Below, one piece after another: positions 9,243 to 30,097 of a stretch of 64,000 nt of DNA. Each line of letters begins with the position of its first letter. Position 1 is the stretch's first letter. The notes under the pieces were generated by a model. That model was not told where the DNA came from and searched no databases. It saw nothing but the letters and a program-made list of their open reading frames with translations. The translations under genes and the position numbers were made by a program. Origin of the DNA: Escherichia phage vB_ESM-pEJ01; sequence record OP114734.1. One strand, given 5' to 3'.

Positions 9243-9419
9243 TTACATTAACAGCATTGTTTGCTCTACGAGTTGTTCTTGTTCTTCGCCGTTCGCATCT
9301 TCACTAATCGAACGTTCTGTTACTAGCTGTAAGCAGTAGCCAGTGTGAACAACGCCGTTTTCTGTCTGGACGGATAACGCATCCTCGACAGGTTGTTTAC
9401 AACAAATACAGATTTTCAT
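9243..9419 (-). CDS. Small Cys-rich protein (58 aa) in the uvsY.-1/-2 position
   Basis: ATG after GGAGG; MKICICCKQPVEDALSVQTENGVVHTGYC...; below the ORF-track cutoff. Confidence 0.45.
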   Translation of the reverse strand: MKICICCKQPVEDALSVQTENGVVHTGYCLQLVTERSISEDANGEEQEQLVEQTMLLM

Positions 9420-9440
9420 AAAAATTCCTCCTGCATGTAT

Positions 9441-9848
9441 TTAGCGACCAGATTCCAGCATACGCAATTCTATAGCATTCTTGATCGCAAAGCCACGAGA
9501 TTTAACGATATCAAGTGCGCGACCAGCAAAATCCATTACCATCTGGTAATATGCAATTTTCGTATCAAGCGGTAAGATCTCGTCGTCTGCTGCCATGACA
9601 ACTTTCAATTCTGATTTCTCATATTCAGCACGACACCAGTCATCACTACGGTTAGTGTAAAAATCAAGACGATTTTTCATAGCCTTTTTCTTTTTAGCCT
9701 CAAGAGCAATCGTCTCTCTTTTCGCCTCGCTGTAAATCCTTAACCACTTTGAGTATACTACCGGATTATTCAGCGCCTCCCATTGCAACTTAGTCGCATC
9801 GATCTTCATGTCAGCTTCTAATTGTTCTTTCAAATCGTTTAGGTCCAT
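9441..9848 (-). CDS. uvsY: UvsY recombination mediator
   Basis: 135 aa; KLQWEALNN...SRGFAIK aligns with T4 UvsY. Confidence 0.9.
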   Translation of the reverse strand: MDLNDLKEQLEADMKIDATKLQWEALNNPVVYSKWLRIYSEAKRETIALEAKKKKAMKNRLDFYTNRSDDWCRAEYEKSELKVVMAADDEILPLDTKIAYYQMVMDFAGRALDIVKSRGFAIKNAIELRMLESGR

Positions 9849-11761: not shown

Positions 11762-12848
11762 TGTCTCAATAAAACTTTATCAGGATTATGAGGCATTTCT
11801 AAATCATCGCTTTATAGAATTGGGTGCTACCTTTGTTACAATGACTCTGCGTGATTCGATTCGTGGGGTGAACGAAGGATTGTTGCAATTCTATGATAAT
11901 AAGGCGATGCATACAAAATTAAATGGACGAGAGATCATTCAGATTTCGCTATCCACTGCTAATACAGATGAAGTGTTTAACCGAATCTATGGGATCTCTC
12001 ATAGTAATGTAACGATTGACCAAAAATCTGACAACATTTTAACATTCCAGTTAAAGAGCTATCACGAAACACTAAACCTTAAATTTTCTCGCTCATTAAC
12101 AAATAACGCTGTTAATAACGTAACTAGCATGATCGATGCCATCTATAAGGAAGTTCCTTTATGGAAACCTACTATAAAGGGTGATAACGTTGTTATTCCT
12201 CGTTGTCCGTGGGTTAGTACCATAAATGACTATATGGATTTTGTTAGGGTATACGGGCAAAGCGTAGAAACCGAGTCTTTCGTGTATTGCTGGGAAGATT
12301 TTGATGGTATAACGATCGCTGGACACGATACAATATTAAAAAATGAGCCAATACCAGCTATAATCTGTGAGCCTAGACTCATGGGGCAATTTATTGATAT
12401 GTCGCCTAATCTGATGGTTTTTAATTTCGAGTGGCAGACTAAGAGCAATGCTAAAGTTAAAAATTCATTTAGCAATGTGACATACACAACTATTGATTTT
12501 GTTACTAAGCAGTATAATAAAATTGTTGTTGGTAATGGGGATAATATTGCACACTTTGCTCATGGTGGCGCTTATGGTAATTTAACTTATAAGAATGCGT
12601 TTTTGGAAGGTTCTAAACTTGCCACAATAGAACAATATGATTCATATGCTACCGCCGTGTGTCACGGTAATTTTTCGTTGCGCCCTGGTATGGTTATTCG
12701 ATTCTTTGATGAGAAGCAACAAGCACGCAATGATTTTATTGTTGACGAAGTGGTGCATGAAATTAGCCGAGAGCAATCATTAACTCACCTGTATATGATC
12801 GGTAACAGCGAAGAATTACAGGAAGTCAAATTTGAAGGTAAGATATAA
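11739..12848 (+). CDS. 27: Baseplate hub subunit gp27
   Basis: Aligns with T4 gp27 (YQDYEAF, MTLRDS, EGLLQFYDNK, IIQIS, SLTHLYM). Confidence 0.9.
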   Translation: MQRTGFPNVSIKLYQDYEAFLNHRFIELGATFVTMTLRDSIRGVNEGLLQFYDNKAMHTKLNGREIIQISLSTANTDEVFNRIYGISHSNVTIDQKSDNILTFQLKSYHETLNLKFSRSLTNNAVNNVTSMIDAIYKEVPLWKPTIKGDNVVIPRCPWVSTINDYMDFVRVYGQSVETESFVYCWEDFDGITIAGHDTILKNEPIPAIICEPRLMGQFIDMSPNLMVFNFEWQTKSNAKVKNSFSNVTYTTIDFVTKQYNKIVVGNGDNIAHFAHGGAYGNLTYKNAFLEGSKLATIEQYDSYATAVCHGNFSLRPGMVIRFFDEKQQARNDFIVDEVVHEISREQSLTHLYMIGNSEELQEVKFEGKI

Positions 12849-21427: not shown

Positions 21428-21760
21428 TTATAGTCTCCTGAATGGATCATCACGTAAATCAATATCTTTTAAGAACTCATCCCATGAATGGCGGATATTA
21501 TTCTTAATTCTCCAGATAAGCGAAGGGATTGAACGCTCTCCCATCTGGAAGTATGGATCATATGATCCGTATGCCCAATATGCTACTACAATTCCGCAAT
21601 CAGTGCAATAGTATTCTATCTCGCTTGCTGGCGACCAAAGTCCATCAATATGATCACGGATCTTGCTTTCAATGTTATGACTATGGCAATCAGGGCAACG
21701 GATGCAATGACCTTGTTTGTCATAATTTGACGTTAGCGAATACTTAAACAATCTCATCAT
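21428..21760 (-). CDS. Zinc-ribbon protein (110 aa)
   Basis: CIRCPDC...CTDC (two CxxC pairs); start overlaps upstream stop. Confidence 0.5.
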   Translation of the reverse strand: MMRLFKYSLTSNYDKQGHCIRCPDCHSHNIESKIRDHIDGLWSPASEIEYYCTDCGIVVAYWAYGSYDPYFQMGERSIPSLIWRIKNNIRHSWDEFLKDIDLRDDPFRRL

Positions 21761-22473
21761 AGATCCTTATTGGCTTCAAATACTGCCTTTGCGAATCCTC
21801 GCGGGGTAAGTGACCTGATAGTCTTTGTTCTGGTTCCTTTCCCGCCTAGCTTAGAATGCTGTTTACTGTACCCTTTATTAATCGGCAACGGTTTCTTTTC
21901 TGGCATTATAAAGCCTTGTCCGGTCCATAAGCAAGTCTTTTTCGGGTACATATCACGGGCGGCAATATACTCAGGAAACGTAGGATGTATATCATCTTCC
22001 GGCAAATAACCGCCATATTCCCACGGGTGGAACATGTAATCAGGCTTACGCCACATGCTAGAGATAACGCTTACAGGATTCTCTATCATGTAGGGAACTC
22101 CTAGCCATTCACCCAAATAAGCGGTTATTTTAGCTGCCCGTACATCATGAACTTGAATCAACGGTCCTTGTTCTAGTTTCTTTCGTTCAAAGTGCGCAGC
22201 GCCACTAACAGCTAAATTGGTGCACGGTGGGAATGCAAAGATAATATCCGGTTTCCCCCATTCAAGGTCCATTGCTCTTTCCAGCCAGTTCAAATCAATC
22301 CAGGTGTTTACATAGGTAATGTTTTGATGTTCAAATCGGGTATTATATTTTTTGTATGTACCGTGGTCGCCATCGTCAGCATTAAAGCAGATCACCTTAT
22401 GACCTGCTTTAGCCCATTCTAACCCCATTATCCCCGATCCGTCAAAGTTGCAGAATATTAATTTTTGTTTCAC
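21757..22473 (-). CDS. C5-cytosine methyltransferase-like protein, truncated (238 aa)
   Basis: Motif I-like FCNFDGSG, motif IV-like FPPCTNLAVSGA (Pro-Cys), motif VI-like MIENP; no obvious target-recognition domain. Confidence 0.4.
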   Translation of the reverse strand: MKQKLIFCNFDGSGIMGLEWAKAGHKVICFNADDGDHGTYKKYNTRFEHQNITYVNTWIDLNWLERAMDLEWGKPDIIFAFPPCTNLAVSGAAHFERKKLEQGPLIQVHDVRAAKITAYLGEWLGVPYMIENPVSVISSMWRKPDYMFHPWEYGGYLPEDDIHPTFPEYIAARDMYPKKTCLWTGQGFIMPEKKPLPINKGYSKQHSKLGGKGTRTKTIRSLTPRGFAKAVFEANKDL

Positions 22474-22790: not shown

Positions 22791-22804
22791 CACTTTTTAT
22801 AAAA

Positions 22805-22972
22805 TTATTTGTTAATTTCTGGTGCGTTGCTAGGATAGTAACCTTCTTTAACTCCGAGATATTTCGCAACCATCCCTACAATCTTCTGTGCTACTACAAT
22901 GTCAAATTTCAGATAATCTTCGCCGTGGGTTTCAATGATATATGCTTCACATGCTGCTTTAGTCTCGAACAT
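22805..22972 (-). CDS. Small early protein (55 aa), paralogue of 26083..26250
   Basis: MFETKAACEAYIIETHGEDYLKFDIVVAQK...; about 85% nt identity to the second copy. Confidence 0.6.
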   Translation of the reverse strand: MFETKAACEAYIIETHGEDYLKFDIVVAQKIVGMVAKYLGVKEGYYPSNAPEINK

Positions 22973-23005
22973 TTTGATTCTCCTATTTCGTTTCGTTATG
23001 TGTGT

Positions 23006-23400: not shown

Positions 23401-23670
23401 TTAGATATTTTCAGAAATAAATTTTAAAACTTGACGTAAATGTTTCTCATCTTTGATAGTCGCCGGAAGTTCTTCTTTTACTTCCTGTGCAAGATAGATA
23501 TTTCCGTTCCAAGTGAAAGATCCGTCTTCGTTTACGCGATAGCTGAACATCCACTCGCAATCATTTTCGATTTCATATACACACAGAAGGGTGTAATCGT
23601 TAAAGCTATTGATTTCAAGGTCGAAGCCGTGACGTTTTGCAAAGTTGGTAGTGGTTTTAGTCAGCGCCAT
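23401..23670 (-). CDS. Hypothetical small early protein (89 aa)
   Basis: ORF with own promoter and AGGAG ribosome-binding site. Confidence 0.55.
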   Translation of the reverse strand: MALTKTTTNFAKRHGFDLEINSFNDYTLLCVYEIENDCEWMFSYRVNEDGSFTWNGNIYLAQEVKEELPATIKDEKHLRQVLKFISENI

Positions 23671-23710
23671 TGTTTGATTCTCCTAAGTGGTATCTCGTTT
23701 CGATGGGTGT

Positions 23711-23739
23711 ATTATGCTATAGGCGTGATCTGGTGTCAA
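23711..23739 (-). promoter_or_regulatory. Early promoter (TTGACA-N17-CATAAT)
   Basis: Plus strand reads ATTATGCTATAGGCGTGATCTGGTGTCAA. Confidence 0.5.
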
Positions 23740-23768
23740 CAACTTTTTTAAAATTTTATGCAATAAAA

Positions 23769-23788
23769 AGCCGACACTAAGGTCGGCT
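23769..23788 (-). terminator. Intrinsic terminator (- strand)
   Basis: Stem AGCCGAC/GTCGGCT with T-run on the - strand. Confidence 0.55.
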
Positions 23789-23795
23789 AATAAAA

Positions 23796-24104
23796 TCATT
23801 TAGACAAATAATCATTCAGTGCAATCCGGTCGGCATGTTCCGGCGTTACGTCAATCGCAATCAGTTTAACGCGTGCTTTCTTGCGACCTGGGTTTTCTCG
23901 TAACCAGTGCTCATGACCGTGAACATTTTTATACTGCGATGCTTCTTCGAAGGTACGGATCGGACCTGGGTAATCAGCGTAAAGGATCTCTAGGTCATCG
24001 GTGATGTAAAAATATACGTTGTAATTGCTGTTCTCTAGTTTAAGCAGAGACATTCGGAACATTGGGAGATTTTCGCGGGTAAATTCAAAGATATTATCTT
24101 TCAT
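23796..24104 (-). CDS. HxHW-family small protein, member 1 (102 aa)
   Basis: ATG at MKDNIFEF after GAGGA; motif HGHEHW...VKLIAIDV. Confidence 0.55.
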   Translation of the reverse strand: MKDNIFEFTRENLPMFRMSLLKLENSNYNVYFYITDDLEILYADYPGPIRTFEEASQYKNVHGHEHWLRENPGRKKARVKLIAIDVTPEHADRIALNDYLSK

Positions 24105-24153
24105 AGTATTATCCTCAATAGTTGGATGAAACGGGGGCTTAACGCCCCGTATA

Positions 24154-24441
24154 TTAAAACAGCCCTTCCTGTACACCGTAGTAGAGTTCATCGCTGATAA
24201 TTTCATTAATGCGACGGTGTGCATATTCCTGATTTGCGAAGTTGTCAGCAAGTTCTACTTTAGTTTCGCCGTCATGAGTCCATTTAGTGATAACTTTACC
24301 ATCTGCAAATTTGAAGTTGAACTCTTTAGCTACCGCATCGCGTACCAGACGTGCAAACTTGTTGTTGCGGATTGCATTGTCGGTTTCGTGTGCAGCGTGA
24401 GCGAATTTGTTAACTTTCAGAGTGATAGTAATGTATGCCAT
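24154..24441 (-). CDS. Hypothetical small early protein (95 aa), paralogue of 27727..28038
   Basis: Shared segment VRDAVAKEFNFK vs VRKALAKEFNTK. Confidence 0.5.
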   Translation of the reverse strand: MAYITITLKVNKFAHAAHETDNAIRNNKFARLVRDAVAKEFNFKFADGKVITKWTHDGETKVELADNFANQEYAHRRINEIISDELYYGVQEGLF

Positions 24442-24487
24442 AATTTGATTCTCCTAGTTAGAAAGTGTATCTCGTTTCGATGGGTGT

Positions 24488-24516
24488 ATTATGCTATACA
24501 CCCGATCTTATGTCAA
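24488..24516 (-). promoter_or_regulatory. Early promoter (TTGACA-N17-CATAAT) with GGGTGTA/TACACCC palindrome around the -10
   Basis: Plus strand reads ATTATGCTATACACCCGATCTTATGTCAA. Confidence 0.5.
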
Positions 24517-24522
24517 CACTTT

Positions 24523-24801
24523 TTATAAAATAATTTTTTGATATTTTTCTATGATGTTCGTGTAAGTCACATCAACCGCTATCACCGTTGCTTCGAATCC
24601 ACCGTTTAGCCAATGGCTATGGTCATGATCGTGAAAGAAACCAAGACCAGTACGAAGACCTTCTTTATATTCGGCGCGTACATTTAGATCATCATCGATA
24701 AACAGATAAAACCATGAATTTTTACTAGGATTGATGATACAACCTTTCAGATTAGGGAGAATATCACGACTAAGAATAAACTTATCACCTACTTTGAACA
24801 T
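24523..24801 (-). CDS. HxHW-family small protein, member 2 (92 aa)
   Basis: ATG at MFKVGDK after GAGGA; motif HDHDHSHW...VIAVDV. Confidence 0.55.
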   Translation of the reverse strand: MFKVGDKFILSRDILPNLKGCIINPSKNSWFYLFIDDDLNVRAEYKEGLRTGLGFFHDHDHSHWLNGGFEATVIAVDVTYTNIIEKYQKIIL

Positions 24802-24815
24802 AATATTTTCCTCAC

Positions 24816-25124
24816 TTATAAAGTTTGACCGTTGTTTTTCGCGTAATGCTGAATGCGTGCTTGATCTGCTTCCGCTGGTGATAGATTCCATGCAACCACT
24901 ACAACTTCTGACGCATCGTCATCCGTTTCTGATACCCAATGATTGTGATTCATACAGTTATTTGCTATCGAGTGAGCAAATGATTTCATCACTGGAGACG
25001 TATAATCATAGTAACGGATTTTCAGATTTTCATCAACATACAAGTAGATCGTATAAGGTTTATATTCAGTAACCAGTAACAGACAGTTACGCAATTCTGG
25101 GAAAATCTTTTTAGTTAATTTCAT
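24816..25124 (-). CDS. HxHW-family small protein, member 3 (102 aa)
   Basis: ATG at MKLTKK after GAGGA; motif NHNHW...VVVVAW. Confidence 0.5.
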   Translation of the reverse strand: MKLTKKIFPELRNCLLLVTEYKPYTIYLYVDENLKIRYYDYTSPVMKSFAHSIANNCMNHNHWVSETDDDASEVVVVAWNLSPAEADQARIQHYAKNNGQTL

Positions 25125-25125
25125 T

Positions 25126-25344
25126 TTATAATCCTCGGTCTCGGCTATAGTACACGGTACGCCATACAATTTCATGTTTCGTGTCGCTCCAGCACACGAT
25201 CTCATTTACTCTTAAATCTTTGTTATCAACAAAAGATGAACATTGTGACGCTTCTTTCATCATTTTATCTGCTGTTTTCTCATCAAATACAGCACAGATT
25301 TCTTTATACACTCGATAATCTTTGAATTGACTCTGAATACCCAT
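25126..25344 (-). CDS. Small Cys-containing protein (72 aa), paralogue of 25304..25567
   Basis: SQFKDYRVYKEICAVFDEKTADKMMKEASQCSSF vs SKFKEYKAYQQILRVYAPEFAEKMMEDASKCPSF. Confidence 0.45.
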   Translation of the reverse strand: MGIQSQFKDYRVYKEICAVFDEKTADKMMKEASQCSSFVDNKDLRVNEIVCWSDTKHEIVWRTVYYSRDRGL

Positions 25345-25567
25345 AATTAACACCATTCCAACCAATTGTTTTTGAGAAAACGTCTATCCACTGTTGAGTG
25401 TAGCATGTTTCTTTCCATGATACAATACGAGTGGAATAATGGTTTTTGTTTCCAGAAAAGGACGGGCATTTTGATGCATCTTCCATCATCTTTTCGGCGA
25501 ACTCTGGTGCGTATACTCGCAGGATCTGTTGATATGCTTTGTATTCTTTAAATTTGCTCATAATCAT
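25304..25567 (-). CDS. Small Cys-containing protein (87 aa), paralogue of 25126..25344
   Basis: See paralogue; overlaps neighbours by a few codons. Confidence 0.45.
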   Translation of the reverse strand: MIMSKFKEYKAYQQILRVYAPEFAEKMMEDASKCPSFSGNKNHYSTRIVSWKETCYTQQWIDVFSKTIGWNGVNYGYSESIQRLSSV

Positions 25568-25826
25568 TCACTACCTTATCAGCTTCTTTTGTTGTTTTTA
25601 CATCAACTGCGATAACTCGTAAAGGTTCGTCATGGTTCCACCAGTGGTCATGAATATCAGCTTGTGATTTATCACCAAAGGAATCACGAATATCATTTTT
25701 ACATTTATAGCTAATGTGACCTTCATAGTCAACATAAAGGTAATTATCGAAAATCGGCGTTTTTAAGATCATACCGAAAAATCTTTCTTTGTGTGTCTTA
25801 TCCAGCGTTACAGTAATTCGCATCAT
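25548..25826 (-). CDS. HxHW-family small protein, member 4 (92 aa)
   Basis: Motif HDHWWNHDEPLRVIAVDV; AGAGGA ribosome-binding site. Confidence 0.55.
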   Translation of the reverse strand: MMRITVTLDKTHKERFFGMILKTPIFDNYLYVDYEGHISYKCKNDIRDSFGDKSQADIHDHWWNHDEPLRVIAVDVKTTKEADKVVNDYEQI

Positions 25827-25838
25827 AATATATTCCTC

Positions 25839-26018
25839 TTAGAAAGGGATGGTCATTTCTTGAGCTTGTACATTCTCGTTAGGATTAAACTTCATCCAAC
25901 CGATATTGTCTACCAGCATATGTACATTTTTATCATATCCTACGTGAGTAGTCAACACTAAATGTGCTTTACCTTCAACGATGATTTCCATGTACTTCTG
26001 AACTTCGATAGCTTTCAT
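25839..26018 (-). CDS. Hypothetical small early protein (59 aa)
   Basis: ATG after GGAGAATCAAA leader; MKAIEVQKYMEIIVEGKAHLV... Confidence 0.45.
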   Translation of the reverse strand: MKAIEVQKYMEIIVEGKAHLVLTTHVGYDKNVHMLVDNIGWMKFNPNENVQAQEMTIPF

Positions 26019-26050
26019 TTTGATTCTCCGTTTGTTGTCTTGATGGGAGT

Positions 26051-26079
26051 ATCTTACTACTCCCTTTAATCATTGTCAA
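26051..26079 (-). promoter_or_regulatory. Early promoter (TTGACA-N17-TAAGAT) inside GGGAGTA/TACTCCC palindrome
   Basis: Plus strand reads GGGAGTATCTTACTACTCCCTTTAATCATTGTCAA. Confidence 0.5.
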
Positions 26080-26082
26080 CTA

Positions 26083-26250
26083 TTATTTGTTAATTTCCGG
26101 TGCGTTGCTCGGATAGTAACCTTCTTTAACACCTAGATATTTTGCAACCATTCCGGTGATCTTCTGTGCTACTACGATATCGAATTTCAGGTAGTCTTCA
26201 CCGTGGTTTGCTACAATGTATGCTTCGCATTCTGCTTTAGTCTGGAACAT
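26083..26250 (-). CDS. Small early protein (55 aa), paralogue of 22805..22972
   Basis: MFQTKAECEAYIVANHGEDYLKFDIVVAQK... Confidence 0.6.
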   Translation of the reverse strand: MFQTKAECEAYIVANHGEDYLKFDIVVAQKITGMVAKYLGVKEGYYPSNAPEINK

Positions 26251-26284
26251 TTTTGATTCTCCTATATCTCGTTGGTATGTGTGC

Positions 26285-26313
26285 ATTATAGGGGATCGGT
26301 GATCCCCTGTCAA
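26285..26313 (-). promoter_or_regulatory. Early promoter (TTGACA-N17-TATAAT) with GGGGATC/GATCCCC palindrome
   Basis: Plus strand reads ATTATAGGGGATCGGTGATCCCCTGTCAA. Confidence 0.6.
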
Positions 26314-26320
26314 CAACTTT

Positions 26321-26623
26321 TTATTCTTCATCTTTATCTTGATATGCGTACTTCATAAATTTGTCTGCTACTTTGTCCGCGTTTTCAGGTTCTACGTCTG
26401 ACGCTAGGACAACAGCTAGTTCGGTTTTGTCGTTTCCATCATACCAATGATTATGAGTGTCGTTTTCTTCGATATAAAACGAATCGTTTGGAGTTGTGCG
26501 ACAATATACGTCTAAATTCCCATCGATATAAAAGATCCAATCCGAATACAAAATGATTGTTTTAGCAAGATTTTTATTGTCTCTTACAAAAGGTTCCGCG
26601 ACAAATAGCTTAGTTTGTTCCAT
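26321..26623 (-). CDS. HxHW-family small protein, member 5 (100 aa)
   Basis: ATG at MEQTKLF after GAGGA; motif THNHWYDG...LAVVLASDV. Confidence 0.55.
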   Translation of the reverse strand: MEQTKLFVAEPFVRDNKNLAKTIILYSDWIFYIDGNLDVYCRTTPNDSFYIEENDTHNHWYDGNDKTELAVVLASDVEPENADKVADKFMKYAYQDKDEE

Positions 26624-26639
26624 AATATTTTCCTCAAAA

Positions 26640-26828
26640 TTATACAGCTTCGTAAACTTCCCAATGTTCAGCACCAACACGCTTAACGAAAAGGTTTTCT
26701 TTGATGTTATTCATAAACGTCTGGATGGATTTAATGCGGTTGGAAGGTTTCCAGTCTTCGTTGGCATTGCGGTGATACATAATATTACCAGTTCGCTTAT
26801 ATTCAGCAACCATTTTAAGACCACACAT
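26640..26828 (-). CDS. Hypothetical small early protein (62 aa)
   Basis: ATG after GAGGA ribosome-binding site. Confidence 0.45.
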   Translation of the reverse strand: MCGLKMVAEYKRTGNIMYHRNANEDWKPSNRIKSIQTFMNNIKENLFVKRVGAEHWEVYEAV

Positions 26829-26884
26829 AATATTATCCTCAATTTGTGGGAGAGTATTACCCTCCCGATTATTGTTATACTACA

Positions 26885-27187
26885 TTACGCAAAATGGCGT
26901 GTCAATGCTTCTTTTGCTGTTCCGCTAAGATTCTCGATCTCTCCTGGCATAACATCAACCGCCAGAACTTCTACAACATCCTCTGATCCTAACCAGTGAG
27001 TATGACCTTTGTAGAACTTGATATCCCATTTATCGCTATCGCTAGCCCACCACACATCACCGTCTATAAAGTTGATGTAAAGCACACTACGACACATTGA
27101 ATTAGTTACTTTCAATACTGCGCCTTTCATCTCTTCCACGGTATGGTCTTCCATTTTGAAGACCTCGCCTACCTTAACTTTTGCCAT
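26885..27187 (-). CDS. HxHW-family small protein, member 6 (100 aa)
   Basis: ATG at MAKVKVG; motif GHTHW...VLAVDV. Confidence 0.55.
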   Translation of the reverse strand: MAKVKVGEVFKMEDHTVEEMKGAVLKVTNSMCRSVLYINFIDGDVWWASDSDKWDIKFYKGHTHWLGSEDVVEVLAVDVMPGEIENLSGTAKEALTRHFA

Positions 27188-27188
27188 G

Positions 27189-27455
27189 TTACATGCTCCG
27201 AATATGTTTAGATGCATCTTCCAGTTCGTCGATAGTGACACTGTGAGCCAGTAAGTGTACTGGTTGTGGTTCTTCACCTTCCATAGTATTGATCAGATGA
27301 CCGTTTCCTGGGTGGAATGTATCGTTGCCGTTCCAAATAGCATACACATCATCTTCTGTTACGTAGATAATAAGTCCAATCGGTGATTCTGGTAATTGAA
27401 AAATTTTACCCACTGCATCTTTGCGATTGTTTACGATATCTTTTACTGTCTTCAT
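27189..27455 (-). CDS. Small early protein (88 aa), possible divergent HxHW-family member
   Basis: FHPGNGHLIN...VHLLAHSV in the equivalent position; GAGAGG ribosome-binding site. Confidence 0.45.
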   Translation of the reverse strand: MKTVKDIVNNRKDAVGKIFQLPESPIGLIIYVTEDDVYAIWNGNDTFHPGNGHLINTMEGEEPQPVHLLAHSVTIDELEDASKHIRSM

Positions 27456-27474
27456 TTAGTTACCTCTCGTTAAA

Positions 27475-27654
27475 TTACATCACAATCACGCCAGCCGTTG
27501 AAAGTTGATGTTTCAACTGAGCATTTTCTGCTACTGTCAAATCAATGATTTCTTGTGACGCTGCAATCATATAGCCATTGGTGATATTGTTTTGCATCAG
27601 TTCAATGGTCTCTTCGTTGTAGCGGATTTTAGCGATGATTTCGTTGAAGTTCAT
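27475..27654 (-). CDS. Hypothetical small early protein (59 aa)
   Basis: ATG after AGGAGAATCAATT leader; MNFNEIIAKIRYNEETIELMQ... Confidence 0.45.
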   Translation of the reverse strand: MNFNEIIAKIRYNEETIELMQNNITNGYMIAASQEIIDLTVAENAQLKHQLSTAGVIVM

Positions 27655-27688
27655 AATTGATTCTCCTAGTTCTTTTCGGTATGTGTGT

Positions 27689-27718
27689 AGTATAGGGGAG
27701 TTTAACCTCCCCTGTCAA
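27689..27718 (-). promoter_or_regulatory. Early promoter (TTGACA-N18-TATACT) with GGGGAG/CTCCCC palindrome
   Basis: Plus strand reads AGTATAGGGGAGTTTAACCTCCCCTGTCAA. Confidence 0.55.
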
Positions 27719-27726
27719 CAACTTTT

Positions 27727-28038
27727 TTAAAGTTTTTCCATGATAACGGTCATAATTACATCTTCTGCGCGAGCGGTCAGATTATCGGCGTCAGCATGTG
27801 GGCGGTTGGTTGTTACAGAGATAACACCGTTGCGCACTGGTTTAATATTGATATCAAGATGGTCCGCGAAACGTTCGCCAGTTACAGAATGAATTTTGGT
27901 GTTAAATTCTTTTGCCAGTGCCTTGCGAACTTCACGAATCAGGGTAGCGTTTTTCAGTTGGTTCTCCGCGCTCATGGTCTTCTGGGTGTTCATGGTTCCG
28001 TCGAAGTCAATCATTGGCAGCGTTACGATGTATTTCAT
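27727..28038 (-). CDS. Hypothetical small early protein (103 aa), paralogue of 24154..24441
   Basis: Shared AKEFN segment. Confidence 0.5.
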   Translation of the reverse strand: MKYIVTLPMIDFDGTMNTQKTMSAENQLKNATLIREVRKALAKEFNTKIHSVTGERFADHLDINIKPVRNGVISVTTNRPHADADNLTARAEDVIMTVIMEKL

Positions 28039-28125: not shown

Positions 28126-28602
28126 TTATTTTTCTTGATGCTCGCGCTCGTACTTTTCGAAATAAAATTCTACTGGCTGGTCATGAATTGACAGCAAGCC
28201 AAAGCGTTTAGCCGCTCGCAATCCCATATTGCGCTGAATGTACTTCTGGAAGTTCTCGCGTATACACTTACGCCAGTATTCTAAGCCCATACAGCTTTTA
28301 TAAAGATTGCATTGCACACACGCCGGATTCATGTTATCAAGTATATCATGTTCCGGTTTATGCATTCCTACAACCTTATACTTCCACGATCCATCATCAT
28401 TACGGGCAATTCGTCCATTTTCATCATAGACTACCTTTGAGCGTCGCAATACTGGTTTGATGTGGTCTGCGTGCCAGCGATCCCCTAGTTCCTCGCCACA
28501 ATAGGCACAACGTCCACCGTATTTCATTTTCAGGATCTGGCGTTGCTCTTTCTTTGACAATTTTTTAGGTTTAGGGGCTTTCGCCCCTTCATTATCACAC
28601 AT
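28126..28602 (-). CDS. HNH endonuclease (158 aa)
   Basis: CAYCGEELGDRWHADHIKPV...CVQCN zinc-HNH motif. Confidence 0.7.
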   Translation of the reverse strand: MCDNEGAKAPKPKKLSKKEQRQILKMKYGGRCAYCGEELGDRWHADHIKPVLRRSKVVYDENGRIARNDDGSWKYKVVGMHKPEHDILDNMNPACVQCNLYKSCMGLEYWRKCIRENFQKYIQRNMGLRAAKRFGLLSIHDQPVEFYFEKYEREHQEK

Positions 28603-30097
28603 CGAATACCTCTTTTACTGTATTTGCAGTGGTCTTGTCGTAGCGAATACGTTTGATGATTGGGAGAAATAAAGAGAACTCCGGTTCATCTTCTTTACGT
28701 GATTTGCTGCGGATATACCCGTTGCATGTCATCTCAATGACTTTTCCGATCAGGTTATGCCGATCAGCCCATAACATTTCTCGGTCAAGTTCATTTCGAC
28801 GATCGAACGGAATTACACGTTCAATACCATCATCACATTTTTCGGTTGTAGTGTCGGTTAATCCCGATCCGGTGTTAGTCATCATTCGTCCGCACGCACT
28901 ACGGACAGTAAAACCGCCTACCTTATTAGGATCTTTACTATGCGGATATACATCAACAATTTCAGCGTCGAAGTCAATCACTTCTTTAAATTTAACCTGG
29001 TCTTTACTACGGCGATCTTCAAATACACCATGTAAATTTTTAAGGATAATACCTTCTAAGCCCATGTTTACATAGCGATGATATACTTCGCGAGCTTCAT
29101 CGATATTGTTAACTACAGTGTTTTCGATTATCTGAACACGAGGATCGTTAAGTTCTTCAACAATCTGTTTTAGTTCTTCGAATCGATCTTTATATTGCTT
29201 AGTTGCTTTCTCGTTTCCGTAATACACATCACGGTCGATAACATCCCAGACAGTATAAACAATACATTGGGCTTCTTCTTTTGGAATAGTTCCTTTAAGT
29301 GATTTGTTGAGGATACCATTTCCGGTCTGACGATCTGCAACAACGGATTCTTTCACTGCTTCCGCTACTGGCGTTAATGGCATTTCCTCTTCTTCAAATA
29401 TCCATGACAGAGTACCATCATAAACGCTTTCAACGAAGTTCTGCGCTGGTGTTTGCGAAAGGGTAGGCATATATACCAATTCGCCATCTAGAACAATTCC
29501 ACGGCCTCGTAGACGCTCTAAAACCGCAAACAAATCATCAAGTCCCTGATAGGTATTACCTGAACGGGTATAGATTGCTAATGTTTCCCCGTCAATATCA
29601 GCCATACCACGAGCGCCATCGCTTTTAAGTTGTGCATACGCCGGATACTTGATATTAGCAATAGTCTTATCAGAACATGACGATGCAAGGTGGCACGGCT
29701 GCTGGGGGATCAGTTTCTTCCATACCTTGTTTGCAGTGGTAGCGGAACAACCGCATTCCAGATCACGATTCAGGACCATCATTGCAACTTTAGCATCATC
29801 TTCTGACAAGCAAGTCAGAGTATCGGTAACTAGCTGTAATGCTGCGTTACCAGTTACTTGACGCGTGGCAAGTTTATTTTTAAAGACCTGTAATGCACCG
29901 GATAAAGACAATACAGACGAATAACGCGATGGTTTATCGTATTTCTTTACGCCAAACGTAACCTGTTTGCAATATGCCAGATAAAAGCATTCTTTCAGAG
30001 TTTCATTGCTTGCGGATTCTTTCAGGATCTTTTCTTTCAGCGATGTTTTGTCGGTCGCTGCAAGCTGGTTAATGATATTAAGAATTGACATTTTCAC
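28595..30097 (-). CDS. 30: ATP-dependent DNA ligase gp30
   Basis: KxDG adenylation motif (AQLKSDGARG); aligns with T4 ligase over its length. Confidence 0.92.
   Translation of the reverse strand: MKMSILNIINQLAATDKTSLKEKILKESASNETLKECFYLAYCKQVTFGVKKYDKPSRYSSVLSLSGALQVFKNKLATRQVTGNAALQLVTDTLTCLSEDDAKVAMMVLNRDLECGCSATTANKVWKKLIPQQPCHLASSCSDKTIANIKYPAYAQLKSDGARGMADIDGETLAIYTRSGNTYQGLDDLFAVLERLRGRGIVLDGELVYMPTLSQTPAQNFVESVYDGTLSWIFEEEEMPLTPVAEAVKESVVADRQTGNGILNKSLKGTIPKEEAQCIVYTVWDVIDRDVYYGNEKATKQYKDRFEELKQIVEELNDPRVQIIENTVVNNIDEAREVYHRYVNMGLEGIILKNLHGVFEDRRSKDQVKFKEVIDFDAEIVDVYPHSKDPNKVGGFTVRSACGRMMTNTGSGLTDTTTEKCDDGIERVIPFDRRNELDREMLWADRHNLIGKVIEMTCNGYIRSKSRKEDEPEFSLFLPIIKRIRYDKTTANTVKEVFDV

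Follow-up and report, generated by a model that had tools for sequence, protein, structure and literature searches.

Much of the genome of a T4-type phage is given over to early ORFans of unknown function. In phage RB49, about half of the open reading frames (ORFs) are without a T4 counterpart (PMC1524935), and both RB49 and phi1 carry ORFan cassettes flanked by promoter-early stem-loops (PeSLs) (Arbiol et al. 2010, PMC2839356). Here we analyze an array of small ORFs in a stretch of 64,000 nucleotides of Escherichia phage vB_ESM-pEJ01 (OP114734.1), called the window throughout, which belongs to a Krischvirus (RB49-like, T4-type myovirus) genome. Six ORFs of this array, m1 to m6, make up an old multigene family that is restricted to Krischvirus-like phages, is kept as six fixed paralogs, and is marked by an H-x-H-W motif; one optional ORF, m7, has a profile similarity that supports a distant relationship to them. 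The array shares with the RB49 and phi1 cassettes the genome type, the region, and units headed by a PeSL. The variable presence of m7 fits the plasticity of such cassettes, whereas the six-member set is fixed, not shuffled.

Other described systems are alike in part. PHROGs 9345, 17255, 15972, 15965, and 16486 contain the same proteins, with m1 and m3 sharing 9345 and the others in one PHROG each (m2, m4, and m5 also weakly cross-match phrog_9345), but they stand as five separate families of "unknown function," not united and without a motif, structure, or function, and m7 is absent from them. The early takeover proteins of T4 (Alc, Ndd, Arn, AsiA, Srd, and others) are likewise small and made early from sigma-70 promoters, and those of T4 are nonessential. 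T4 differs, however, in having no homolog of the family (best E of 0.19 for family hidden Markov models [HMMs] against 1,255 T4 ORFs, covering 147 of 169 kb), and alt.1 alone separates its alt gene from gene 30; the corresponding region of the window is therefore one hyperplastic region of the kind described for RB49 and phi1. AcrIIA7 (8kbi_A), ModTad2 (9eib_A), and the Tas1 immunity protein (6ox6_B) are similar in size class, small alpha/beta fold, and accessory context, and immunity genes occur as tandem arrays of diverged paralogs.

The individual genes are already known as deposited hypothetical proteins, the annotation carried by all ORFs in the RB49 interval from alt to gene 30, and cassettes of ORFans flanked by PeSLs have been described before. 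The text describing those cassettes makes no mention of paralog or gene-family terms for these ORFs (PMC2839356), and literature searches by RB49 protein accession and on Krischvirus early and anti-defense genes found no description of the family. What appears to be new is the uniting of the ORFs into one family, its motif, a repertoire fixed at six members whose subfamilies are ancient, the connection of m7 and its relatives in prophages to this family, and the absence of a solved structural analog. Five unconnected PHROGs of unknown function and one unclassified ORF are thus joined into a single family.

Six paralogs with a shared motif

All seven ORFs on which the earlier note built its proposal of a tandem small-protein family are present, on the minus strand (Table 1), and their coordinates agree with the coding sequence calls in FL20, G2248, PHB13, and other related GenBank genomes. 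Their start codons are preceded by Shine-Dalgarno-like sequences, with nearly identical contexts, TGAGGAWAATAYT-ATG, for m1, m2, m4, and m5. The products are soluble alpha/beta proteins of small size, 88-102 aa, whose acidity ranges from mild to strong; m1 to m7 have no transmembrane segment, and their isoelectric points run from 4.35, in m5, the most acidic member, to 6.1.

Although pairwise identities among m1 to m6 are low, at 17-28%, profile comparison recovers the six as true homologs. When all 763 six-frame window ORFs were scored with an HMM built from five members, the held-out sixth was recovered each time, at E values from 5.1e-14 to 7.9e-7 (Table 1), and no further ORF in the window scored, in agreement with the proposal of one paralogous family. 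Among the six-frame ORFs of the window (57,780 aa), the pattern H.HW is found six times, always in m1 to m6, against 0.66 occurrences predicted from composition. In an alignment of 34 sequences (m1 numbering) that includes the most divergent relatives found, metagenomic ones among them, H66 and W67 are invariant (34/34), and H64 and Y33 are each kept in 94%, so that the H-x-H-W residues hold their positions, as had been supposed. At the level of sequence, then, the family of m1 to m6 is real, and chance resemblance is excluded.

The family signature reads [LF]-Y-[IV]-D ... H-[ND]-H-W ... V-[LIV]-A-x-[DN]-V-x-P-x-x-A-D. All six members carry H-x-H-W in register together with the [LF]-Y-[IV]-D and V-[LIV]-A-x-[DN]-V strands, the second of which is the hydrophobic strand that had been noticed after the motif and is conserved across the alignment. 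The acidic patch said to follow the motif is not shared by all members; in m1 the corresponding residues are basic (RENPGRKKAR). A 62-aa ORF at 26640-26828, which ends in AEHW and has a similar ribosome-binding context, was considered as a decayed member and rejected, its score being no better than those of 557 of 1,983 scored shuffles.

A distant relative

The seventh ORF, m7, which the earlier note had listed as a divergent member, holds up as a distant relative and not as a full member. It lacks the first His and the Trp, with G-N-G-H-L in place of H-x-H-W, and it is not significant by HMM (E of 0.5 in the window leave-one-out set and 0.17 in a second search). A profile of m7 and its own relatives, which share 58-72% identity, nevertheless aligns to the family profile in hhalign with a probability of 93.8% (E of 1.7e-7, 68 columns), and it is this comparison that supports the relationship. 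In the alignment, the YLYID strand lies opposite IGLIIYVTEDDVYA, the invariant second His opposite His53, and the V-L-A-x-D-V-x-P-E-x-A-D segment opposite VHLLAHSVTIDELEDA. Subthreshold HMM links point the same way, reciprocally between the m7 group and m6 orthologs (E of 0.013-0.037) and from Salmonella m7-like proteins to the family profile (E of 0.0035). Since m7 carries G-N-G-H-L, the Trp and the first His would not be features of the wider superfamily.

Structural comparison gives a further lead. The predicted model of m1 matches C4MZ33, an 88-aa protein of phage JSE, in BFVD (probability of 1.00, template modeling scores of 0.58/0.66). JSE encodes an m7 ortholog that is also 88 aa long, and C4MZ33 is therefore probably that ortholog, an assignment made from length only. 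The AlphaFold model of m7 itself is poor (predicted local distance difference test [pLDDT] of 63.9) and was rejected for fold searching; the order of its elements is the same as in the m1 model.

The gene is optional: 8 phage records, representing 7 distinct phages, contain it, as do 4 of 9 compared Krischvirus loci and L028, a 169-kb metagenomic genome. Proteins resembling m7 (58-65% identity) also occur in Salmonella and Escherichia coli assemblies (L012-L015, 8001-8294; L006-L011, around 6000), where their genes border host metabolic genes at the edge of lambda-like prophages or lie close to HicB-like and IS3 genes. From this placement at prophage edges, the divergent branch would have moved between virulent T4-type and temperate phages.

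Distribution and age of the family

The family is confined to a narrow group of phages. A word-indexed profile search of 5.8e9 clusters returned 85 proteins, all of about 85-128 aa, with long carrier contigs of about 164-176 kb, and an exhaustive HMMER search of 1.84e9 representatives returned 23 clusters at E <= 1e-3. Three of these (P0096, P0099, and P0101) are spurious, being NHL-repeat propellers that repeatedly match a YLYVD-x-N hairpin only. The other approximately 20 are single-domain proteins and one 203-aa tandem fusion (P0089), all from Krischvirus-like phages. When divergent members served as tblastn queries, only about 56 of 50,697 phage records were matched, all of them Krischvirus, and the 58 phage records that match positions 23500-27700 by megablast are all Escherichia or Shigella phages of the same genus, FL20 being the closest (97% identity over the full length).

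Within this group, copy number is constant. Exactly six members are found in all nine Krischvirus loci compared and in L028, which repeats the full gene order of the window. A neighbor-joining tree resolves clades for m1, m3, m4, m5, and m6, each with orthologs from divergent uncultured T4-like phages, with m2 placed apart from the other clades. Separate clades with divergent orthologs indicate that the expansion is old and stably maintained, neither recent nor fast evolving, and as each lineage is kept separately in divergent phages, the paralogs are not redundant.

One 20-kb contig (L003) has the same ligase-to-alt setting and two m5-type genes. On a 2.1-kb metagenomic contig (L005), an m6-type gene, a two-domain fusion, an m4-type gene, and an m3-type gene follow one another, giving five domains in four adjacent genes, and both 59-aa "leader" genes of the window are interleaved among them; the order of the genes resembles that of the window. 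The fusion is P0089 (L005, 823-1434), a single 203-aa ORF in which two HxHW domains are joined by a linker of about 20 residues, which suggests that the domains work in pairs.

Selection and variation

The presence of several diverged copies in one early region had been read in the earlier note as a sign of diversifying selection, a claim that the substitution data do not support. The ratio of nonsynonymous to synonymous change (dN/dS), pooled by the NG86 method among nine Krischvirus genomes, lies between 0.07 and 0.23 for m1 to m6 (Table 1), similar to the values of neighboring ORFans. In a scan of 12-codon windows, none reaches 1, the top value being 0.88 (m1 codons 73-84), followed by 0.57 (m3 codons 67-78) and 0.54 (m5 codons 37-48). 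Together with the fixation of six copies in ancient orthologous clades, this shows that all six paralogs are ancient, constrained, and under purifying selection, which is not a gene-wide diversifying pattern.

The variation that does exist is concentrated around the motif. The windows of highest dN/dS fall in loops beside it, and protein variability within subfamilies peaks directly before and after the fixed H-x-H-W (m1 positions 61-65 and 71-75); m5 is variable, and m6 has indels, before the motif. Synonymous diversity is high in two members, with pS of 0.42 in m5 and 0.23 in m1 versus about 0.07 in flanking genes, suggesting old alleles exchanged by recombination. The m5 orthologs split into classes of about 70% and 95% identity. 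Truncated or frameshifted alleles also occur (P0064, P0065, P0080, P0083, P0084, and P0097; JSE and kvi for m1; a frameshifted m3), and their presence in some isolates suggests that individual members are dispensable or accessory.

Predicted fold and searches for known domains

The earlier note could assign no named domain, and database searches reach the same point. No member has an above-threshold match in Pfam, NCBIfam, or PADLOC, no weak family recurs among the 34 members, the PADLOC anti-defense and defense profiles give no match at E <= 1, and neither the family profile nor the m7-group profile matches a PDB sequence. Hits to PROCT, TTL, Cupin_2, Imm19, and the ATPase epsilon subunit are subthreshold and isolated, each from one member only, and were discarded.

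An AlphaFold2 model of m1, built on a 24-sequence alignment, is confident (pLDDT of 82.8, predicted template modeling score of 0.78). Its elements run in the order beta(5-7), alpha(13-16), beta(19-23), beta(29-34), beta(40-45), alpha(52-58), HxHW loop (62-67, pLDDT of 64-77), beta(78-84), alpha(88-100), and the strands at 19-23, 29-34, and 40-45 agree with the beta-like N-terminal part that had been noted in the sequence. Foldseek comparison of the model gave no PDB match at E <= 0.001; in BFVD, four matches reach this threshold, all Krischvirus proteins, and the rest are weak.

Possible functions

Our preference, held tentatively as one possible reading, is that m1 to m6 are nonredundant binders directed at different host targets, with the HxHW loop serving all of them as contact or ligand site. 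Host RNA polymerase would transcribe the units directly after infection, and each paralog would act as a stoichiometric binder of a different host component, for example, a defense or housekeeping factor. The loop with His-x-His-Trp, together with Tyr33, would form the common anchor, while the neighboring loops, the most variable and indel prone, would set specificity. The two His residues may also provide a binding site for a metal or ligand, possibly one shared across a dimer. In T4-like phages, expression of novel ORFs generally accompanies that of early genes, and cloning of some of them is toxic (PMC1524935). Judged from context only, an anti-defense or host-takeover role is plausible.

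Two points weigh against host-directed binding, in which our confidence is low. A process internal to the phage could be served just as well by six conserved genes of fixed number under purifying selection, and the predicted surface exposure of HxHW, next to the variable loops, derives from secondary-structure order and the lower pLDDT (64-77) of that segment of the model. A bolder version, which we consider doubtful, is that the HxHW proteins have a previously undescribed fold and are six long-maintained, nonredundant early effectors, each neutralizing a different host target, for instance, a defense system or an immune signaling molecule, through the shared anchor loop and the variable specificity loops next to it, with the m7 branch spreading the scaffold into temperate phages of Salmonella and E. 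coli. If the paralogs do have distinct targets, they would show how phages keep stable, not fast-evolving, effector repertoires. Krischvirus is used in phage therapy, and with a 3.7-kb array, three invariant residues, and a natural two-domain fusion, the family offers a compact, testable target for finding host-takeover or counter-defense functions in this genus.

The suggestion in the earlier note of a small metal-binding domain is an unlikely alternative to such binders. Here, H-x-H would ligate Zn, Ni, or Fe, with the other ligands supplied by a second protomer or a partner, and the protein would work as a metal-dependent subunit of an enzyme, as a metallochaperone, or as a metal-bridged dimer. 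In favor of this, H-x-H hardly varies, several members have extra His residues nearby (HGHEHW, HDHDHSHW, HDHWWNH), and the fusion P0089 fits a dimeric unit. Only two His residues are conserved, however, and no third ligand: position D35 varies among D/N/T/H and D85 among D/N/G, there is no conserved Cys in the 34 sequences, and the extra His62 of m1 varies among m1 orthologs. Even the first His of the pair is replaced by Ser in P0082 and P0085 and by Asn across the m7 branch, and P0088 lacks it. A structural zinc-binding domain of any class was rejected, as this needs at least 3-4 invariant Cys/His/Asp/Glu ligands and only H66 is invariant, with H64 at 94%; a zinc site shared between protomers is conceivable. 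The cupin superfamily was rejected as well, Cupin_2 matching 1 of 34 members (E of 0.18, 12 bits against a cutoff of 27.2) and the model being mixed alpha/beta with two long helices and not a barrel. The metallo-beta-lactamase superfamily (e.g., 6xfr_B) was set aside, the members not showing its HxHxDH motif with distal His/Asp ligands and four-layer fold of about 200 aa or more.

Quite improbable, in our view, is a role in internal phage physiology, with the proteins as accessory subunits in DNA metabolism or in the Krischvirus cytosine-modification pathway. Fixation of six copies genus-wide under purifying selection would suit this, as would the location of the array between the ligase and HNH genes on one side and a DNA methyltransferase gene (phrog_757) on the other. 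Some Krischvirus phages have glucosylated cytosine modifications, for which the pathway is reported as unknown (2026 paper, PMC13390438). Against this, TB34, with unmodified DNA, and SAP, with modified DNA, are 99.96% identical and give no lead between them, proteins of about 95 aa without a catalytic signature are unlikely enzymes, and isolates such as JSE and kvi are viable with truncated alleles.

We regard as very unlikely that the proteins are sponges for small molecules, such as immune signaling nucleotides, with Trp and Tyr stacking on bases, His contacting phosphates, and the paralogs tuned to different ligands. The invariant residues Y33, H66, and W67 are aromatic or His, and the proteins are small, early, and soluble, but structural matches are at noise level, no member matches DUF2829 in Pfam, and phosphate-binding basic residues are not conserved. 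Chance or low-complexity resemblance among unrelated ORFans, or ORFs that are not real genes, is refuted for m1 to m6, the low pairwise identities being outweighed by leave-one-out E values down to 5e-14, six motifs versus 0.66 expected, the low dN/dS, orthologs in divergent phages, and the confident AlphaFold model.

Expression units and genomic setting

The members lie in three operon-like units (Table 1) whose genes are tightly packed, with 1-14 nt between m7 and m6 and between m3 and m2, and members inside units are not separated by PeSLs. Each unit is headed by a repeated cassette of about 65-80 nt that reads, on the coding strand, A-rich tract, TTGACA, GC-rich hairpin, TATAAT, AGGAGAATCAA, ATG, with AGGAGAATCAA preceding the first ATG of the units. 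The cassettes fall into two repeat families, D1 and D2, with seven copies each in the 20-30 kb part of the window, and a consensus scan finds nine minus-strand promoters with 10-12/12 consensus matches in 22.4-28.7 kb. This cassette is the PeSL of Arbiol et al. (2010, PMC2839356), all defining features of which it shows. The copy at 26253-26332 corresponds to PeSL206/205 of RB49, because RB49 ORF206 is the m5 ortholog. Promoter and terminator activity has been shown for RB49 PeSLs, including PeSL206/205, a strong promoter of about 13,000 Miller units (PMC2839356). Because the units sit behind sigma-70-type PeSL promoters, the family genes can be taken as early, in keeping with the early region to which they had been assigned.

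Table 1. Members of the array, PeSL cassettes, and neighboring genes in the window
Feature	Coordinates	Strand	Product or sequence	Relationship or position	Leave-one-out E	dN/dS
m1	23796..24104	minus	102 aa; HGHEHW	RB49p197 ortholog; phrog_9345	5.1e-14	0.23
m2	24523..24801	minus	92 aa; HDHSHW	RB49p199 ortholog; phrog_17255, weak match to 9345	1.1e-9	0.07
m3	24816..25124	minus	102 aa; NHNHW	RB49p200 ortholog; phrog_9345	5.6e-11	0.18
m4	25548..25826	minus	92 aa; HDHWW	RB49p203 ortholog; phrog_15972	5.1e-8	0.18
m5	26321..26623	minus	100 aa; HNHWY	RB49p206 ortholog; phrog_15965; pS 0.42	3.5e-10	0.19
m6	26885..27187	minus	100 aa; HTHWL	RB49p208 ortholog; phrog_16486	7.9e-7	0.16
m7	27189..27455	minus	88 aa; GNGHL replaces HxHW	Probable distant relative, variable accessory gene; no PHROG		
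PeSL cassette	27657..27736	minus	D1; promoter 27718..27689, TTGACA-18-TATACT, 11/12	Heads 59aa-m7-m6-62aa-m5		
PeSL cassette	26253..26332	minus	D1; promoter 26313..26285, 12/12	Overlaps m5 stop; RB49 PeSL206/205		
PeSL cassette	26030..26094	minus	D2; promoter 26079..26051, TTGACA-17-TAAGAT, 10/12	Heads 59aa-m4-87aa-79aa-m3-m2		
PeSL cassette	24467..24531	minus	D2; promoter 24516..24488, TTGACA-17-CATAAT, 11/12; 9-bp hairpin 24481-24504	Overlaps m2 stop; heads 95aa-m1		
PeSL cassette	23690..23754	minus	Promoter 23739..23711	Downstream of m1; starts next unit		
Intrinsic-terminator-like hairpin and T-run	23769..23788	minus	7 pairs, 5 G-C; tail TTTTATT	Directly after m1 stop		
DNA ligase (gene 30)	28595-30097	minus				
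HNH endonuclease	28126-28602	minus				
DNA methyltransferase	21757-22473	minus	238 aa	phrog_757, E 1e-89; no Pfam match		

The array region of RB49 is flanked by alt (RNA polymerase ADP-ribosyltransferase) and gene 30 (DNA ligase). The methyltransferase of the window has FDGSG and FPPC motifs that, by eye, resemble those of C5-cytosine methyltransferases. In the hyperplastic region of L028, positions 12003-12521 encode a 172-aa protein with a precomputed Pfam match to GmrSD_N, which by size and position looks like the counterpart of RB49p187.

Smaller features, putatively regulatory, lie within the units. A promoter-like site at the end of the m6 coding sequence (26877-26905, minus strand; TTGACA-17-TAGTAT, 10/12) could drive the 62-aa ORF and m5 separately, and a hairpin, GGGGC-GTTAA-GCCCC (24134-24148, minus strand), in the 49-nt spacer between the 95-aa ORF and m1 may act within its unit in attenuation or in RNA stability.

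Duplication is also seen outside the family. Positions 22804-22975 and 26082-26253 form a 172-nt direct repeat of 85% identity that carries a 55-aa ORF (phrog_8009), and as PeSL cassettes flank each copy, it looks like a recent PeSL-bounded gene duplication. In the ORF at 26083-26331, dN/dS is about 0.95 over the upstream extension, which makes 26250 the probable start of the real gene. The 95-aa ORF (24154-24441), just upstream of m1, has a 103-aa paralog (27727-28038) just upstream of the PeSL that heads the m7-m6-m5 unit; both match phrog_7474 (E of about 1e-43), and each is the first gene after a PeSL. A fixed pairing of the 95-aa gene with a family member was rejected, the two being adjacent in the window and in L003 (a homolog of 70% identity) but in opposite order. 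Finally, 25126-25365 and 25304-25567, between m4 and m3, are overlapping tandem paralogs of 79 and 87 aa with 40% identity, for which L003 has a single homolog at 9403-9657.

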